A program made the translations under genes and the position numbers. A stretch of DNA of 64,000 nt. Origin: Nitrospirota bacterium. Lineage in GTDB: Bacteria; Nitrospirota; UBA9217. This document shows positions 51,211-59,072 of this stretch, piece after piece; position 1 is the first letter of the stretch, and each line of letters opens with the position of its first letter. The stretch is from the NCBI GenBank assembly GCA_963751455.1, contig CAVVUN010000002.1, forward strand, positions 576,001 through 640,000, in the 5' to 3' direction. The notes under the pieces were generated by a model. That model saw only the letters and a program-made list of their open reading frames with translations. It was not told where the DNA came from and ran no database searches.

Positions 51211-52206
51211 TTAATAGTGGTAGGCCTGACTTCCCACCTTGCCGCTGAAAATAATATAGCTGTATACCGTATAACCGATAACGATCGGCAGAATAATTGC
51301 GGCTCCCCAGAGTGTAAACTCAAGAGTTTTTATCTGAGCCGCAGCATCGACGAACGTCACATCAGGCGGAATGGCATAGGGATACACAGACGCAAACAAC
51401 GAGATATATCCGGCGAAAAAGAAGGACACACTGAAAATAAACGGCATGCGTTCACGGCGCACGCGGATGCTTTTGATAATCCCGTAAAAGGATAACACGC
51501 TGAGTGCAGGAAGAAGCCAGAGAAAATAGATTCGCGGCAGCGAAAGCCAGTTTGAGAGCACCATCGGGTAATGGAAAGGCGTCCAAACAATCATCACGAT
51601 TTGAAAGATCAGCACGACACAGGCTGACCAGAAGGCCTGATGAAACGCCCTTTCCTGCACTCTTCCCGTTGTTTTGAGGATGAGATACGTGGAGGCGAGA
51701 AGAACATAGCCTGCTATCAACCCGGTTGCAGCGCAAATTGAAAAAAGATTCAGCCAGTCTAAAGAACCGCCTGAGAAGCTGCTTTCAGCCACCCGGATTC
51801 CGGACAGGATCCCGCCGAGTGTAAGCCCCTGGGACACCACTGCGGTCAGGCTGCCCAGGAAAAATGCCCTGTCCCATCTGCTTTTTCGTGAAGCATTGCT
51901 CCGAAATTCGAAAGAAACACCGCGGAAGATAAGGCCGTACAAAAATGTAAAGAGAGGAACATACAGGGCGCTGAAGAGCACGGCGTACATCATCGGAAAT
52001 GCGACAAAAAGGCCGCCTCCGCTGAAAACAAGCCAAGTCTGGTTGGCGTCCCAGACCGGCGCTATGCTGTTCATAAGCGTGTTGCGTTCTTCCTCGCTTT
52101 TCGTGAACGGAAACAACAGCCCGATTCCGAGGCCGAAGCCGTCCAGGATTACGTAGAGGATGAGGGCAAGCCCAAGAAGGGCGATCCAGATGTTGACAAG
52201 GTCCAT
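51211..52206 (-). CDS. cydB: Cytochrome bd ubiquinol oxidase subunit II
   Basis: LDGFGLGIG, SIAPVWDANQTWLV..GG.LF.AFP..YA, RGVSFEFR. Confidence 0.95.
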   Translation of the reverse strand: MDLVNIWIALLGLALILYVILDGFGLGIGLLFPFTKSEEERNTLMNSIAPVWDANQTWLVFSGGGLFVAFPMMYAVLFSALYVPLFTFLYGLIFRGVSFEFRSNASRKSRWDRAFFLGSLTAVVSQGLTLGGILSGIRVAESSFSGGSLDWLNLFSICAATGLIAGYVLLASTYLILKTTGRVQERAFHQAFWSACVVLIFQIVMIVWTPFHYPMVLSNWLSLPRIYFLWLLPALSVLSFYGIIKSIRVRRERMPFIFSVSFFFAGYISLFASVYPYAIPPDVTFVDAAAQIKTLEFTLWGAAIILPIVIGYTVYSYIIFSGKVGSQAYHY

Positions 52207-52283
52207 GAATACCGCCAAAGAAGTGTCAGAGTGTCGAAGTATCAAGTGTCACAGTGTCGATTCGTCGAAGAAACTCTGCCTAT

Positions 52284-53645
52284 TTATGATAGCGGCCTCA
52301 TCCCGGCGGGCCGCTGTACAGCCGGTATGGGACTGGAAAGGTCCGGTCCCCGCTGTATTATCTTGAGAACGTAATATGCATAGATTGAACCGATGGCCGC
52401 AAAGATGATCAGAAAAAGGGTCAGGGACCAGACAACATTGCCGGCAGGGATAGGAGAGATGCCCTCAGCGGTCCTCATCATATTGTATACGAGCCAGGGC
52501 TGGCGGCCGACTTCGGTCGAGATCCATCCTGCTTCTACTGCTACAAAACCGAGGGGATGCGTGATCAGGAGCGTCCGGAGAAAAGGGCGGTGTTCGAAAA
52601 GCCTCCTTTTTCTCAGGAGCAGCACTGCCCATACCATGACGAGAAAATACAGCGTTCCGATTCCTATCATGATCCTGAACGCCCAGAACAAGACCGGGAC
52701 ATAGGGCCGATTTTCTCTCCTGACTTCCTTCAGTCCGCTTACCCTGCCTTTTAAGGAATGAGTGGCCAGGAGGCTGAGTCCGCTCGGTATGGAAATCTCA
52801 AGGATGTTTCGTTCAGCCTCCATATCAGGAAAGGCAACGACTGCGAAGTCAGCTCCCCGGTCGATGTTCGTATCCCAGTGACCTTCCAGGGCCGCCAGCT
52901 TGACGGGTTGATGCGTGAACACGCTCCGGCCGCTCATGTCGCCCAGTACGATCTGAAGCGGCGCAAATACCGCGGCCATTGCGAGCGCAAGCCCGAGGGA
53001 ACGACGGAAGAGCCTTATGTGGGAGTTGTTCAGCAGGTAATACGCGCTGACGCCTGCGACCACGAATACGGAGGTTTCGAGCCCCGCCATGGTCATATGA
53101 TACACGCGGACCCAGGTGGAAGGATTCAGGATTGCACTATTAAAATCAATGACGGTGAATCTGCCATCCATCACAGCAAACCCCGCAGGCGTCTGCATCC
53201 AGGAATTTGCGGCAAGGATCCAGAACGAGGAAATGATTGTCCCCGCTGCCACAAGGCATGTGGCAAGGAAATGCATGTGACGGCTGACCCTGTTCCACCC
53301 GAACAGCATGATGCCGAGAAAGCCCGATTCGAGAAAGAACGCGGTCATGACCTCGAAGGCCAGAAGAGGGGAAATCACGTTGCCCGCCATCTGGGAAAAA
53401 CGCGAAAAGTTTGTGCCGAATTCAAATTCGAGCACGATCCCGGTGACGACGCCGACTCCGAAATTGACAGCGAAGAACCTCGTCCAGAAGCGGTACATAC
53501 GGTAATACAGCTCTTCCCTGGTCCTGAGCCAAAGAAACTCAATGACAACAAGGTAAACCGAAAGCCCGATGGTCAGCGTGGGGAAGAGAATATGGAACAG
53601 CGTTGTTACTCCGAATTGTATCCGGGAGAGCAGAACGGTATCCAT
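52284..53645 (-). CDS. cydA: Cytochrome bd ubiquinol oxidase subunit I (short Q-loop)
   Basis: SRIQF...FHILFP, GVVTG...EFEFGTN, AFFLES.F, ANSWMQTP, QP.KLAA.E, GW..TEVGRQPW. Confidence 0.96.
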   Translation of the reverse strand: MDTVLLSRIQFGVTTLFHILFPTLTIGLSVYLVVIEFLWLRTREELYYRMYRFWTRFFAVNFGVGVVTGIVLEFEFGTNFSRFSQMAGNVISPLLAFEVMTAFFLESGFLGIMLFGWNRVSRHMHFLATCLVAAGTIISSFWILAANSWMQTPAGFAVMDGRFTVIDFNSAILNPSTWVRVYHMTMAGLETSVFVVAGVSAYYLLNNSHIRLFRRSLGLALAMAAVFAPLQIVLGDMSGRSVFTHQPVKLAALEGHWDTNIDRGADFAVVAFPDMEAERNILEISIPSGLSLLATHSLKGRVSGLKEVRRENRPYVPVLFWAFRIMIGIGTLYFLVMVWAVLLLRKRRLFEHRPFLRTLLITHPLGFVAVEAGWISTEVGRQPWLVYNMMRTAEGISPIPAGNVVWSLTLFLIIFAAIGSIYAYYVLKIIQRGPDLSSPIPAVQRPAGMRPLS

Positions 53646-53739
53646 GCAATGCCTCGCAGTGAAGGTATATCATTAATGATAGCACGAGCGGATTTAGTCA
53701 GTTACAAGTCAAATTCTTCTCAAAATGGGGAGAATATTT

Positions 53740-53834
53740 ACCGCGAAGGCGCGAAGAACGCGAAGGACATCAAAACAAAGAGGATTTTGTTTTAATTCAA
53801 GACTTGCAAGGTTTTCTTCGCGACCTTCGCGCCT
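53740..53834. repeat. Inverted pair of triple CGCGAAG units; the second copy is split by the IS110 element
   Basis: accgcgaaggcgcgaagaacgcgaag (53740-53765) faces cttcgcgaccttcgcgcCT (53816-53834) plus tcgcggt (55466-55472). Confidence 0.85.
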
Positions 53835-53914
53835 GGTTTATTGCTGTCAAGTATTTTTATTCTTTTTTATGTTTTATCTTTCTTCAAGCTTTGGCTTAAA
53901 AGAATGACTTCGAT

Positions 53915-54080
53915 CTTAGGTGCGGCACCTCGCCCAATCCTGGTATTAGAGGGTCTCGACAGAGCCCAAACCTTGCTTTATTGGGACTAAGGTGCAAGCG
54001 GGGAGTTATGTAAGCTTTGCGAGAAGGTCGGCATAGCCGCCTTAGATGGCGCGAACGATAATCTCCCCCGCCTGCACGCT
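53915..54080 (-). ncRNA. Candidate IS110 bridge/seek RNA downstream of the recombinase (target-binding and donor-binding loops)
   Basis: Two stem / internal-loop / hairpin modules (53992-54077 and 53933-53985). Their loop segments match the reconstructed target and donor sites. Confidence 0.75.
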
Positions 54081-54092
54081 AAAACATTTGAG

Positions 54093-55352
54093 TTACGCAG
54101 CCTCGAGCTGAAACGATTTTTTTATGTAATCTTCTTCGTAAACGCTATGATCACGTACGACGGCAAATATGATTCCGAGAAGCTTCCGCGCGACAGCGAT
54201 CAGCGCTTTGGTCTTGATCATTCCACGATCGAGATACCGCCGATACTGTTGGTGCATTACGCCGTCTTTGCGAACGGTATTGAGCGCGGCAAAGTACAGA
54301 AGTTTCCGGAGCAGCGGCCGGCCTCGCTTGGAAATGCGGCGCGTCCCTCTATGCTTGCCCGAGCTGATCTCAAAGAGGTCAAAACCGGCGAGCTTCATGA
54401 TCTCCCCGAGGGTGCTGAACTTTCGGAAATCGCCCACTTCGCCGATGAGACCGGCAGCGGTGACCTCGCCGATCCCTTTGAACGAAAGAATCGAGTTGCT
54501 GTAGGGAATCTGCTGAAGTTGAAGAACCATCTCCGCTTCCAGTTCGGAGTTAAATTGCTCAGAGACCTCCATAGCGGCAAGAATCGCTCGGATCTCTCGG
54601 AGGATGCTGGCTTGGCCTTCGGTTACGCCTACGGACGATTCTGCGGCCTCGTAGAGCGCTTGGGCTCGGTCTGCTCCAAGCTTGCCCCGGCTCACCTTTC
54701 TGATCGTCTGGGTGAGCTTGTCAACGCATTGCGCCGCAATCTCCTTTGGTGTCGGGCAGTGTTTCAAAAGATGTTTCGCAGTTGCCGTCTTTACATCTTT
54801 CATTACCTGCTTAAACTCTGGAAAAATGATCGCGATCAAGCCCTGAAGCTGATTCACCAATGCCGTGTGACGCTGGGTGCTCCTCTCTCTGGCCTGGGTC
54901 AGCCTCCGAAGCTCGGCGGCGGGACCTTCCGGGATCACCACGCTCAGGGCATGTCCAAGCTCTATGATGTCGGCAATGACCTTGGGGTCTTTCTGGTCCG
55001 TCTTGTTCGGAGAATTGCCCTGGAGCTCTTTAACTCTCTTGGTGTGCATGGGATTTACCTGTACAAGTCGCACGTCTCGCGCCCGCATGAAATGCACCAG
55101 AGCCTCGGCGTACGACCCGGTGGATTCGTATCCAAAGACAATTTCGTCGAGATTATGGATTTCCTTCGCCCGGGATATCCGCTGCCAGAATTCGTGGAAA
55201 CCCGACCCGTTGTTCGAGAAAGGAAAACTCTTCACGTCGGTTCCATCCGGACAGCGCCAGTACCCGTAATGTTTGTCTTTGCCCATATCAGCGGTCACGA
55301 TAAGAGATTTTCCATTGACTACTCTAAACTTTTTTGTTTTAATCTTCTTCAA
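54093..55352 (-). CDS. IS110-family DEDD recombinase/transposase
   Basis: ADMGKDKH, YESTGSY, VNP, KTDQKD, GIG...A..LIGE.GD..KF, SSGK...ISKRG...LR..LY, AVARKL. TTG start at 55352 follows an AGAGG RBS. Confidence 0.95.
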   Translation of the reverse strand: MKKIKTKKFRVVNGKSLIVTADMGKDKHYGYWRCPDGTDVKSFPFSNNGSGFHEFWQRISRAKEIHNLDEIVFGYESTGSYAEALVHFMRARDVRLVQVNPMHTKRVKELQGNSPNKTDQKDPKVIADIIELGHALSVVIPEGPAAELRRLTQARERSTQRHTALVNQLQGLIAIIFPEFKQVMKDVKTATAKHLLKHCPTPKEIAAQCVDKLTQTIRKVSRGKLGADRAQALYEAAESSVGVTEGQASILREIRAILAAMEVSEQFNSELEAEMVLQLQQIPYSNSILSFKGIGEVTAAGLIGEVGDFRKFSTLGEIMKLAGFDLFEISSGKHRGTRRISKRGRPLLRKLLYFAALNTVRKDGVMHQQYRRYLDRGMIKTKALIAVARKLLGIIFAVVRDHSVYEEDYIKKSFQLEAA

Positions 55353-55560
55353 GGCTATACCTCTTTCTTCGGTTTGGATTACCAACTTGCCAGCTGGTTT
55401 CAAATCGAGAAAGAGTATAGCCTTTTTTAAGTAAGGCTCAATTGCTTTCTGCAATATAGCAAGCTTCGCGGTTCCAAGGTTTTAGTTCCGGATTTCCCGG
55501 GTTAGGATCAGAAGCGCTTCTTAATCCCCGCAAAAGAGTCTTTGCCGCATGCTATTTGGA

Positions 55561-55950
55561 TCACCAACTGCTTCTTATGTCGACGATATCCTGGATAAGC
55601 GCCGAAAGTTTTCGAGCTTTTTTTTGCGGTCCGCTGTTCAATGCTTCAAGAAGCGGATCACAGAAATACCATGTGCATCTCCACGGTCTCAGCCAGCGGG
55701 GAGTAATACAGCCGTTCAGACCCATGAACTGGCACGGGCCGTCGGGGAGGAGGGAAGGATCGTACAGGGGGAGAGCCTGCCCAAGAGCCGAGACATAGCG
55801 GGCGTCCACGGCATCGAGGAGGCAGCGCCGCTGTTTGCAGCACACGTCACGGCAGTCCGGACATGTCCGGGCAGTGTATGCGTCTATCAGCGGTGATAGC
55901 TCGATAAGCAGCGCTTTCAGCTTTTGGGCAATTGCTTGTTCTCCGGTCAT
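55561..55950 (-). CDS. Cys-rich hypothetical protein (YkgJ/Fe-S-cluster-like)
   Basis: CPDCRDVCC, CQF.G..GC, RPWRC.WYFC. ATGA overlap with the cyoE stop. Confidence 0.65.
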   Translation of the reverse strand: MTGEQAIAQKLKALLIELSPLIDAYTARTCPDCRDVCCKQRRCLLDAVDARYVSALGQALPLYDPSLLPDGPCQFMGLNGCITPRWLRPWRCTWYFCDPLLEALNSGPQKKARKLSALIQDIVDIRSSW

Positions 55951-56815
55951 GGCATTTTGGGGAACACGCCCCGGATTATTACGACGGACATCAGGAGCAC
56001 GACATAGCCGTTCAGCATTGCGAATGCGGAGAGCGCGTGATCCGGCGTCGAGCGCGGAGTAACGAGCGAATGGCCTTTTATGACGATGTTGATGGCTGCA
56101 GGCAGAAGCAAAAAATAGAGGAGGCCGGGCTTGATCGCTCCGAAAACAGGAAGCAGAAGCGCCGAGGCGGCGGCAGAGCATATCCACGCGAAGGTGATGC
56201 GGGCTATCTGCTTTTTATCGAGCAGCTTGGTGAGCGACGGAAGGCCGGCCAGTTCATATTCCTCGCCGTGATGCAGGACCTGCAGCCAGAAATGGGGCAC
56301 CTGCCACAGAAAAAAACGAAACAGAGGATGAGGAGCCGGGGATCGCTCAAACCGCCGCCGGCCGCGACCCACCCGATGGCAGGAGGGATCATGCCGACAA
56401 GCGCACCAGGCACTGCGGCAAAAGCCGTCAGACGCTTCAGGTTCGTGTAGACGCCGTTGTAGCAGAATGCGGCACTCACGCCCAGTATGAAAGCGGCTTT
56501 TCCAAGCAATGAGAGCAGCGCGAGTCCGCAAAAAATAAGCATGAGCGCAAAGGCATGGGCCTGTATCGGAGAAAGAGCGCCTGAAGGCAGGGGACGTTGT
56601 TTCGTTCGGTCCATGCGGGCGTCGACATCCTGCTCCTGCCACTGGTTAAGCGCGGAAGCGCCGGCGCTCAACACGAAGACGGAGACCGCAGCAACCAGTC
56701 CGTTTGAAAAAGACGCGGGTGATTCCAGCAAATAACCTGCAAGTGCCGAAAAAGCGGCATATACTGCAATGGGAAATCTGCAAAGTCGCCCGTAGGTATT
56801 GAGAATAGCAGTCAT
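55947..56815 (-). CDS. cyoE: Protoheme IX farnesyltransferase (heme o synthase), frameshifted in a T7 run at 56310-56316
   Basis: SALNQ..E...DARMDRT..RPLPSG, YT.LKR and GA..G..PP..GW are in one frame; FLWQVPHFW...EY..AG.P is in the next. Confidence 0.88.
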
Positions 56816-57759
56816 TTCAAGTTTTTGATGTATGCGACGATCCGATCAATCTCTTTGTTCGTCAGCTGCCCCTGCTGCGAAGGCATGATCGGCGGATACC
56901 CCTTTACCCGGTCGAGCTCCGGATTCAGAAGCGTCTGCCTGATAAAGGCCTCGTCAACAACCACGCTGCGCTCTTTTCCCGTATTGATCACTGTTTCCTT
57001 TTTGCCGAACATCCCCTTGAAGGTCGGTCCTACGCTCGGCGTTCCGTCGATGCTGTGGCAGGAGATGCAGCCTTTTTCCCTGACAAGCTCCGCGCCGGAT
57101 TCCGGCTCGGACGGTTCGGATGCGGCAGCGTGCTGCTCCTTCCCGGCCGCCGCAGCTTCTCTCCCGCCGTACCAGGCATTGAAATCCGCGAGGTTCATCA
57201 CTTCCACTTTCGTGGTCATCCGTGCATGCGCGACCCCGCAGTATTCGGTGCAGAACAGATCGTAGGAACCGGTCTCATCAGGCTGGAACCAGAGATAGGT
57301 CTGCCTTCCGGGAACCGCGTCCTCCTTGATGCGGTATGCGGGGATGTAAAGACTGTGAAGTACGTCCTCTGATGTGATGAGCAGCTTCACCGGTTTCCGG
57401 AGCGGTACCCGGAGCACGCTGTCCTGTTTGCCGTTCTCATACTCGAACGTCCAGGAAAACTGACGTGCCGTGACCTTGATCGGCATCGCGTCAGGCGGGA
57501 CCGTTCTCATATATTGAAAGCCCTTCCACCCGGCGAAAAAAATGAGCAGCACGAGGATCGTCGGGATAACGGTCCAGAGTATCTCGATCGAAACACTTTC
57601 CTTTACGTCCTCGGGTTGCGGATTTCTCTTTCTGCTGTACCTGATCGTGAAGAAAATCATGACCCCGGTATTCAGTAACAGAAGGGTAAGGGAAATCCCG
57701 AGAATAAAGAAGAAAACGCTGTCTGCGGGATTCGACATATTTGGCCAGCCGGTTAACAT
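56812..57759 (-). CDS. coxB: Cytochrome c oxidase subunit II with C-terminal cytochrome c
   Basis: EILWT.IP, QFSW.F.Y, DVLHS, K.DAVPG, CTEYCGVAH..M (CuA site), CISCH. Confidence 0.95.
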   Translation of the reverse strand: MLTGWPNMSNPADSVFFFILGISLTLLLLNTGVMIFFTIRYSRKRNPQPEDVKESVSIEILWTVIPTILVLLIFFAGWKGFQYMRTVPPDAMPIKVTARQFSWTFEYENGKQDSVLRVPLRKPVKLLITSEDVLHSLYIPAYRIKEDAVPGRQTYLWFQPDETGSYDLFCTEYCGVAHARMTTKVEVMNLADFNAWYGGREAAAAGKEQHAAASEPSEPESGAELVREKGCISCHSIDGTPSVGPTFKGMFGKKETVINTGKERSVVVDEAFIRQTLLNPELDRVKGYPPIMPSQQGQLTNKEIDRIVAYIKNLK

Positions 57760-57774
57760 ATAATTCCTTTAAGA

Positions 57775-57862
57775 ATTTCAAATATCAAATTTCAAATTGC
57801 AAAATGCAAAGTAAGGATCAATTCAAACTCAATTTGCAATTTACAATTTGCACTTTGCAATA
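57775..57862. repeat. Inverted 7-mer tandem arrays (TTGCAAA/TTTCAAA) within the cox operon
   Basis: atttcaaatatcaaatttcaaattgcaaaatgcaaag faces aatttgcaatttacaatttgcactttgcaat. Confidence 0.7.
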
Positions 57863-57867
57863 TTCTT

Positions 57868-58149
57868 TTACCTGTACCATATGTCATAAAATGTGAGCCA
57901 GATTATGATCGTTATGGTTCCGATGGGCACAAAGAACAGCAGTTTGAATATTCTTTTTTCATACTTGAGGTGCATAAAGAACCAGAGCACGAGGCTGGCT
58001 TTTGTCGATGCGATCAGCAAATTCATCGCCATGCTCCATTGACCCATGTGCATCCGTGCAGCCTGGATCGTTATCGCAGTCAGGCCGAGTAGGGCGATCC
58101 ACGTAATCATGAACGTGCGTGCAGTGGCGTGCTCTTTGTTTGCTGTCAT
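57868..58149 (-). CDS. Cytochrome c oxidase subunit IV
   Basis: W.ALL.LT.IT, IA..KA.LV..FFMHLKYE. Confidence 0.9.
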   Translation of the reverse strand: MTANKEHATARTFMITWIALLGLTAITIQAARMHMGQWSMAMNLLIASTKASLVLWFFMHLKYEKRIFKLLFFVPIGTITIIIWLTFYDIWYR

Positions 58150-58164
58150 TGCGGCTCCTTCGTT

Positions 58165-58464
58165 TCAATCAAGTGTTCTATTGCAGTGCCTGCAGCGTTT
58201 CAGAGGAAGAAGGGACCAGAAAAATAGTTCCATTCCGCAGACGTTAAGGGGCCTGAGCAGTACCGGGACGCGGCAATCCGGACACCGGACAAGGAACGCA
58301 TACAAAGTATATGCTATAACGGTCAGAGCCAGGTATGCCAGAACCATCAGGTGACCAGCCTGAAAATCCCAGGCCCCGAACCCGAGCAGAAAGAACAGGC
58401 CAAGCCAGCAGATGACGATTATTATATTTTTGGATCGCCGGTTCATGATGGCCGGATTCCTCAC
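58165..58464 (-). CDS. Small membrane protein with two CxxC motifs inside the cox operon
   Basis: Two TM helices, RCPDC...RCRHC. Overlaps the coxC stop. Confidence 0.6.
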   Translation of the reverse strand: MRNPAIMNRRSKNIIIVICWLGLFFLLGFGAWDFQAGHLMVLAYLALTVIAYTLYAFLVRCPDCRVPVLLRPLNVCGMELFFWSLLPLKRCRHCNRTLD

Positions 58465-59072
58465 GTAATGAGATAGAAGAGCGGAAACAGGTATATCCAG
58501 ATGATGTCTACGAGGTGCCAGAACAGCCCGGTATTCTCAAGTTTTATATAGTCATTGCTCGAAATGACGCCCCGGCCGGTCAGTACGAGCGTAAACGCTA
58601 TCAGGCCCGCGCCTATCAGAACGTGAACGGCATGAATGCCGGTCATCACGTAGTAGAGTCCGAAATACAGAATCTTTCCGTGGCTCATCGCGAGCAGTTC
58701 AGGTGAATTCGGGAACACGCCGTGCCGGATATGGCTGCTCCATTCAAAAAACTTGTCGACCAGGAAGGCGGCCGCCAGCACGAGAGTAAGGGCCTGGAAG
58801 AGCATTGACAAACGCTTTTCGCCCTTTTTCACTGCCAATATGGAAAGGGCCATAGTCAGGCTGCTCGTCAACAGGATGACGGTATTGACAGCCCCGAGCG
58901 CTACGTTCATGTCCTTCCCGGCTTCGTGAAAATCGGCCGTATGAACCGTCCGGTATACCGCGTACACCAGGAACATGCCGCCGAACAGCAGAATCTCCGT
59001 AAACAGGAAAAGCCACATGCCGAGCTTTGCACCGACGTAATCACGATGTTCGATGTGAGAAGTTTCGTTCAT
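58461..59072 (-). CDS. coxC: Cytochrome c oxidase subunit III
   Basis: GMWLFLFTE...FGG.F..Y, NT.ILLTSS, YYVMTGIH..HV, GLFWHLVD.IW. Confidence 0.94.
   Translation of the reverse strand: MNETSHIEHRDYVGAKLGMWLFLFTEILLFGGMFLVYAVYRTVHTADFHEAGKDMNVALGAVNTVILLTSSLTMALSILAVKKGEKRLSMLFQALTLVLAAAFLVDKFFEWSSHIRHGVFPNSPELLAMSHGKILYFGLYYVMTGIHAVHVLIGAGLIAFTLVLTGRGVISSNDYIKLENTGLFWHLVDIIWIYLFPLFYLIT

Follow-up and report, generated by a model that had tools for sequence, protein, structure and literature searches.

An IS110-family insertion sequence from a Nitrospirota bacterium with a probable two-loop bridge RNA downstream of its recombinase gene

The window, a 64,000-nucleotide stretch of the genome of a Nitrospirota bacterium, contains an intact insertion sequence of the IS110 family. 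Four segments of its 3' non-coding region match the landing site and the element's own ends, and this region very probably encodes a bridge RNA with two loops by which the recombinase is guided. The element has defined boundaries with CT cores, a recombinase with its catalytic residues, a two-loop RNA structure with compensatory changes among relatives, and guides that covary with the DNA. RNA-guided jumping genes of the IS110 kind have been known since 2024, and the candidate RNA is, judging by its sequence, a bridge RNA of this known kind and not a new kind of system. The features discussed below are as follows.

53747..53832, no strand assigned: host REP-like inverted repeat that holds the insertion; left target half at 53826-53832
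53833..53834, plus strand: CT core at the junction with the 3' end of the gene (AG on the strand of the ORF), from the sequence and from the single CT in the empty allele on contig C9
53835..53850, minus strand: tip of the right end, with the right donor half (53835-53839), the sub-terminal inverted repeat (53839-53844, 6 bp), and the -35 hexamer TTGACA (53850-53845)
53925..53995, minus strand: candidate donor-binding loop (loop 2), from coordinates, consensus structure, and donor and handshake counts
53992..54077, minus strand: candidate target-binding loop (loop 1), from coordinates, consensus structure, and covariation with the flanks
54093..55352, minus strand: IS110-family recombinase gene (419 aa, TTG start), from Pfam and NCBIfam profiles and catalytic residues
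55351..55424, minus strand: long 5'-leader hairpin, predicted to cover the ribosome-binding site, from its fold against shuffled sequences
55451..55463, minus strand: tip of the left end, with the left donor half (55457-55463), the -10 hexamer TATATT (55458-55453), and the sub-terminal inverted repeat (55451-55456, 6 bp)
55464..55470, plus strand: second CT core (55464-55465) and right target half (55466-55470), from the sequence, which continues the empty allele on C9

The element is 1,629 bp long (53835-55463), carries a CT core at each end, and interrupts one arm of a host inverted repeat whose 19-nt arms (53747-53765 and 53816-53834) are 89% complementary. "REP-like" is our own label for this repeat, taken from its shape and copy number. 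Removal of the element together with one core leaves 78 consecutive bases across the join that are identical to an uninterrupted repeat on contig C9, which bears out the empty target rebuilt in the earlier note and fixes the ends without any use of the guides. CT is present at both junctions and only once in the empty allele, i.e., there is a short shared core and no longer target duplication. The right-end motif is also the breakpoint in multicopy relatives. The sub-terminal inverted repeat is perfect over 6 bp and imperfect beyond, and the non-coding ends measure 258 nt on the 3' side of the gene versus 111 nt on the 5' side.

The 14-bp target is found in 24 copies in the genome versus 0.1 expected under an order-3 Markov model, and the corresponding 15-mer, with at most one mismatch, in 53 sites. 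A genome-wide family of about 50 to 60 intergenic repeats is built on the target motif, often in inverted pairs 55 to 140 bp apart. Among the relatives described below, a second copy of the target lies within 150 bp at just 9 of the 55 empty sites, so that REP targeting is not supported as a trait of the family. No further copies of the element and no stand-alone RNAs were found in the 5.7-Mb genome. The neighboring genes, all on the minus strand, resemble what we take to be subunits of a cytochrome bd oxidase (51211-53645, downstream) and a heme-copper oxidase cluster (56204-59072, upstream). Transcripts reading through from upstream could provide the RNA while the element is inserted.

The recombinase passes the curated cut-offs of the Pfam domains DEDD_Tnp_IS110 and Transposase_20 and scores 210.7 bits against NCBIfam NF033542 (cut-off, 140). 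It combines a DEDD RuvC domain with a Tnp domain that carries the catalytic serine, the pair by which bridge recombination systems are recognized. Residues D22, E76, D119, D122, and S331 are all present and are kept in 67 or 68 of the 68 intact proteins of the relatives. The gene is single copy, with one tblastn match in the 5.7-Mb genome. Its probable TTG start is placed by the ribosome-binding site and by an ATG, GTG, or TTG at the same position in relatives. The leader hairpin upstream of it has a predicted folding energy of -38 kcal/mol (z score, -6.36), a value equaled by none of 200 shuffles, and at least three of the five bases of the ribosome-binding site are paired in 45 of 53 distinct leaders of relatives. 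Relatives show compensatory sequence changes in this hairpin, and in the Firmicute sisters a comparable anti-site pairing can be made out by eye. When the ends are joined, consensus pattern matching finds a -35 element, a 17-nt spacer, and a -10 element in 62 of 62 rebuilt junctions, which constitute a predicted promoter.

The RNA region lies downstream of the gene and is read on its strand. Loop 1 consists of an outer stem (54077-54063 with 54005-53992) and an inner hairpin (54043-54024); the internal loop between them holds the left target guide, UUCGCGCC, at 54055-54048 and the right target guide, CGCAAAG, at 54021-54015, followed by two handshake bases (54014-54013). Loop 2 has a stem (53985-53980 with 53938-53933), an inner hairpin (53967-53951), the left donor guide AGCAAG (53977-53972), and a right donor guide that spans 53947-53940 with a bulge, includes ACCAG (53944-53940), and is followed by a handshake base at 53939. 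The segments and CT cores listed in the earlier note are thus confirmed in the sequence at their places on the minus strand; two of its details needed adjustment. First, the outer stem of loop 2 is longer than had been claimed, pairing 53995-53980 with 53938-53925; it competes with the lowest four pairs of the loop 1 stem, and the alignment of 42 sequences supports the pairing in loop 2 but not these four pairs. Second, the right donor guide does contain ACCAG and extends beyond the bulge to the distal AA at 53947-53946, which faces donor positions 13 and 14 in 66 of 67 loci.

Taken as a single sequence, this region folds no better than expected by chance (z score, -1.55), with 15 of 200 shuffles doing equally well. 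Across 42 dereplicated sequences, however, the consensus shows two modules, each made up of a stem, an internal loop, and a hairpin, and 28 of its 39 pairs have compensatory changes. The element thus contains a structured non-coding region with two internal loops. Each of the short guide matches alone arises by chance at a rate of 0.9% to 31%. When the first 200 nt of the 3' region are dinucleotide-shuffled 20,000 times, all four never occur together and three of the four do so in 62 shuffles, a control that is rough because the segments were picked after the fact. An Rfam scan of 53600-55700 gave two matches far under the cut-off, neither of them in the RNA region, and no family reached the threshold. 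No terminator-like site was called within the RNA region.

Relatives were collected in a scan of GTDB contigs, which gave 132 related stretches. The best 80 of these 132 (52 to 77% identity) were used; they come mostly from Nitrospirota and Desulfobacterota-type genomes. A search of 40 related genomes found a match in 9, the best at 31% identity. Together with the window, 73 of the 81 sequences have the full RNA region; those left out are five that end within 43 nt past the stop codon, the truncated gene L064, which has no RNA, and the partial L017 and L056. A 14-nt motif, in which one mismatch was tolerated, served to call the left ends and the pattern TTGAC-6/7 nt-AA-NNN-AG the right ends; copies from the same genome diverge at these end motifs (L019-L021, L022-L028, L047-L052, and L066-L069). 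Guides were parsed solely from anchors in the RNA scaffold. For control of kinship, the 68 intact proteins (5 of the 73 are broken and were left out) were grouped into 46 families at 95% identity.

The two segments of loop 1 covary with both halves of the target. The left target guide agrees with the reverse complement of the right-end flank at a mean of 5.84 of 7 positions (30 distinct guides at 66 loci with at least 7 nt of flank). When guides are shuffled among the elements with equal freedom of register, the mean is 2.86 (standard deviation, 0.24; maximum, 4.08), and none of 100,000 permutations reaches the observed value. The right target guide agrees with the left-end flank at 4.35 of 5 positions (25 guides, 64 loci), versus 1.55 in permutations (maximum, 2.7; again none of 100,000). 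Among disjoint pairs of nearest relatives with different guides, the element's own flank is the better match in 16 of 16 pairs for the left guide and in 18 of 20 for the right, with two ties and no losses. Proteins that are 78 to 94% identical use different targets, which follow the RNA. The earlier note had proposed a natural RNA-guided recombinase and had named the lack of covariation between loop segments and target or donor sequences across homologues as what would speak against it; the opposite is found, in support of that reading.

The donor guides of loop 2 equal the element ends in 66 of 67 loci on the left and 67 of 67 on the right, including the matched variants AGCACG (2 loci), ACT (2 loci), ATA (7 loci), and ACA (7 loci). 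This match and covariation with the joined ends rest on about four independent changes, counted on the tree by eye. The left donor half hardly varies, maybe because the -10 box overlaps it, and the constancy of the left end is partly built in, since its motif was called with one mismatch allowed. Target position 7 is the complement of the donor-loop handshake base in 61 of 67 loci or, counted by family, in 37 of 41. At 15 loci the handshake base and the left guide predict different bases, and in 13 of these the target follows the handshake base, as the handshake pairing of IS621 predicts (PMC11208158).

Several loci fit poorly. L009 and L062 score 1 of 7 in the fixed register; their right guide is unparsed, which places them outside the right-guide test, and appears poor by eye. 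The flanks of L066 and L074 are unlike their own guide, and L003 and L005 are shifted by 2 nt. L003, L005, and L004 represent the same element with the same guide; L004 is in register, and L003 and L005 share the left flank, which suggests that the element moved with an extra piece or that the register slipped. In L074 (position 3018), the right end runs directly into sequence that resembles a left end and folds into a small hairpin; this chromosomal junction is donor-like and is perhaps an insertion into, or a remnant of, a sister element. The right ends of L001, L002, L008, L018, and L031 measure 370 to 400 nt, versus the usual 200 to 260 or so, with the extra sequence located between the RNA and the end motif.

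It is conceivable, although we consider it rather less probable, that loop 1 alone, cut from a long transcript, is the principal RNA, as in the seeker-RNA variant, and that the role of loop 2 is limited to certain steps or to that of an RNA in its own right. Short target-matching RNAs of 70 to 100 nt dominate for ISEc11, ISKpn4, and ISPa11 (PMC11187229), a form with only the target-binding loop (TBL) makes up 90.4% of the RNA bound in CazIS110-1 (10.1101/2025.10.25.684509), and the two loops of the window element are separate stem-loops that could be cut apart. However, loop 2 is conserved, and where it varies, both ends and target position 7 vary with it, so it is under selection for DNA pairing, and the same source on CazIS110-1 reports that its full RNA is required for excision and integration. 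This alternative is compatible with the bridge RNA and alters only which RNA species dominates.

An alternative that we regard as unlikely accepts a bridge RNA by descent and holds that the copy in the window is inactive, stranded with a guide tuned to the repeat of another host, and no longer moves. The element is single copy despite 24 exact copies of its target, and its right guide disagrees with its own site at a single base, target position 11. A perfectly matched target for this guide occurs nowhere in the genome. In L014 and L035, the same guide agrees with the flank at every position. On the other hand, the gene, the catalytic residues, both ends, and the promoter halves are intact, and position-11 mismatches are common among relatives (identity, 0.86 at this position), including the eight-copy family L022-L028/L034. 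The idea that the hairpins are a terminator or an mRNA-stabilizing structure, the matches being due to chance or shared descent and the targeting due to the protein, might draw on the unremarkable single-sequence fold and the chance rate of single matches but is already refuted by the covariation, to judge from the permutation and nearest-relative tests, the missing terminator call, and the close proteins whose different targets track the RNA.

Under the bridge-RNA interpretation, the element would leave its site as a circle, as may be supposed from IS621, ISEc11, and CazIS110-1. The joined ends would create a sigma-70-type promoter (TTGACA, 17 nt, TATATT) that reads the leader, the gene, and the RNA, and the RNA would be cut out of the transcript of the gene and then associate with the recombinase. 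Each loop would base-pair with the two strands of one DNA partner: loop 1 with those of the 14-bp target in the host repeat (over 8 nt and over 6 of 7 nt), and loop 2 with those of the circle junction (over 6 nt and over 2 + 5 nt). A RuvC-DEDD/serine tetramer would then swap strands at the CT core, aided by the handshake pairs.

A search of solved structures matches only IS621 and ISCro4. These elements (PMC11208160, PMC11208158, and PMC13626964) share many of the features found here: a DEDD RuvC domain with a serine domain, the CT core, 14-bp sites, two simple internal loops with the target loop first, the bulged right donor guide with handshake bases, a short ATA/TAT inverted repeat around the donor, a junction promoter, and a REP-like insertion site. 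The IS621 guide template given in PMC11208160 has seven left positions plus the core, and five right positions plus the core and two handshake bases, with the donor side written as "rr..rrrcchh"; the guide layout in the window repeats it, including the bulge. A two-loop bridge RNA of about 170 nt, with loop-only forms, is likewise described for the IS110 element CazIS110-1 (10.1101/2025.10.25.684509). Unlike in IS621 and ISCro4, the RNA in the window lies 3' of the gene instead of 5', the sites are inverted relative to the ORF, no 5' stem-loop is visible, and the natural right target guide pairs over 7 nt instead of 4. The protein has 419 aa, versus 328 aa in the solved chain, and the similarity between them reaches only an E value of 1.8e-9.

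Both the position of the RNA 3' of the gene and the inversion of the CT-core sites relative to the ORF had been recognized correctly in the earlier note, and both are known from the IS1111 group. According to PMC11187229, some IS110-family elements have their non-coding region on the 3' side, and the IS1111 layout has it downstream with the top-strand match first, reversed relative to ISEc21. The published IS1111 order means that the sites are inverted relative to the ORF, so both apparent differences are already published features. The window has this long non-coding end with the RNA downstream, and its first guide is complementary to the ORF-sense ("top") strand, as in the IS1111-group elements ISEc11, ISKpn4, ISPa11, and ISPst6. 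Further likenesses to IS1111-group seekRNA elements in the same source are the junction promoter and, in ISPa11, the targeting of REP sequences. However, the protein in the window is 419 aa long, versus 330 to 350 aa in that group, its inverted repeat is perfect over 6 bp, versus 7 to 17 bp, and its donor loop is a simple internal loop, unlike the multi-loop reported for many IS1111 RNAs (PMC11187229). The weakest scores (38 to 46 bits) are to IS4321, ISPsy16, and IS5708, which form a branch of their own (99) apart from the query clade in a quick tree of 13 references and 7 family members, whose long branches permit only a rough placement; full-length relatedness to IS1111 elements is not seen.

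The window element instead has the long variable region and the short, imperfect inverted repeats of the long IS110 subgroup (395 to 455 aa). The usual state of the IS110 group, an RNA upstream of the gene, is not found, as the RNA here lies downstream. A bridge RNA has been predicted for 85.7% of the IS110 elements and 93.0% of the IS1111 elements, mostly, though not in every case, by the usual rule (PMC11208160). The nearest proteins in the plasmid set are long Firmicutes IS110-group transposases of 426 to 428 aa (L081-L084 and L103-L106), 30 to 35% identical over nearly the full length, with which the window protein groups in the quick tree. Their elements share with the window a 3' RNA, an AG core, and guides that match their own flanks in the same polarity, and they differ in the sequence of the RNA scaffold and in their ends. 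By eye, the long proteins of the Firmicutes and of the window resemble the cluster of IS650, IS653, ISChy2, and ISCsa4, as far as supplementary text shows it.

Four of four Firmicute plasmid elements carry a 5- to 8-nt copy of the left-end flank plus the AG core downstream of the gene, and two multicopy elements (three and four copies; 30 to 33% identity) have short 5' ends and long 3' ends; this shared layout thus marks a wider branch. These boundary comparisons do not include L102 and L105 (different elements or a frame error), and L119, L127, L131, and L133 were stopped at a divergent copy. L103, L104, and L106 are the three-copy element, from a Cytobacillus plasmid (about 33% identity), whose 3' two-loop RNA by eye matches the flanks and the right end in the same polarity. 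L118, L126, L130, and L132 (genome G036) are the four-copy relative, at 30% identity, with 226 nt shared 3' of the stop codon; their common right boundary ends in a Shine-Dalgarno-like GAGGAGG, with an ATG some 5 to 10 nt further on, and this element may target ribosome-binding sites. A circularly permuted RNA was considered for the Firmicute sisters and dropped, as the usual order fits.

The combination in the window of a long IS110-group protein, an IS621-shaped RNA, and IS1111 polarity is mildly unusual. In the literature searched, which takes in a minority of the subscription journals, no paper was found to describe a 3' guide RNA for any long element of the IS110 group. A 2026 preprint already applies 86 models to score 32,190 predicted bridge RNAs (10.64898/2026.10.21.760802). 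Relative to IS621, the gene and the RNA are reversed between the ends, so that the same RNA layout reads the sites in the IS1111 polarity. We tentatively suggest, with a little less than even confidence, that the long IS110-group branch, comprising the Nitrospirota and Desulfobacterota family and, at about 30% identity, its Firmicute sisters, came to the IS1111 layout independently, by turning the gene and the RNA between IS621-like ends.

The element represents a clean natural case, in which four guides, a handshake base, and a junction promoter can be read from the sequence and checked in relatives, and a single scaffold comes with no fewer than 30 natural variants of the target guide. The element is relevant to a small open point in the field, namely, whether the chemistry is the same for 5' and 3' guide-RNA layouts, and it adds a long-protein scaffold that lies outside the source pool of a human-cell screen of IS621-like orthologues. 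If the IS1111 layout did arise independently here, the "reversed guide order," which has been read as a difference in mechanism between IS110 and IS1111, would be only the direction of the gene, and this family, whose natural right target guide spans the full 7 nt and whose handshake base prevails over the left guide at position 7, would be a candidate scaffold class for genome editing.
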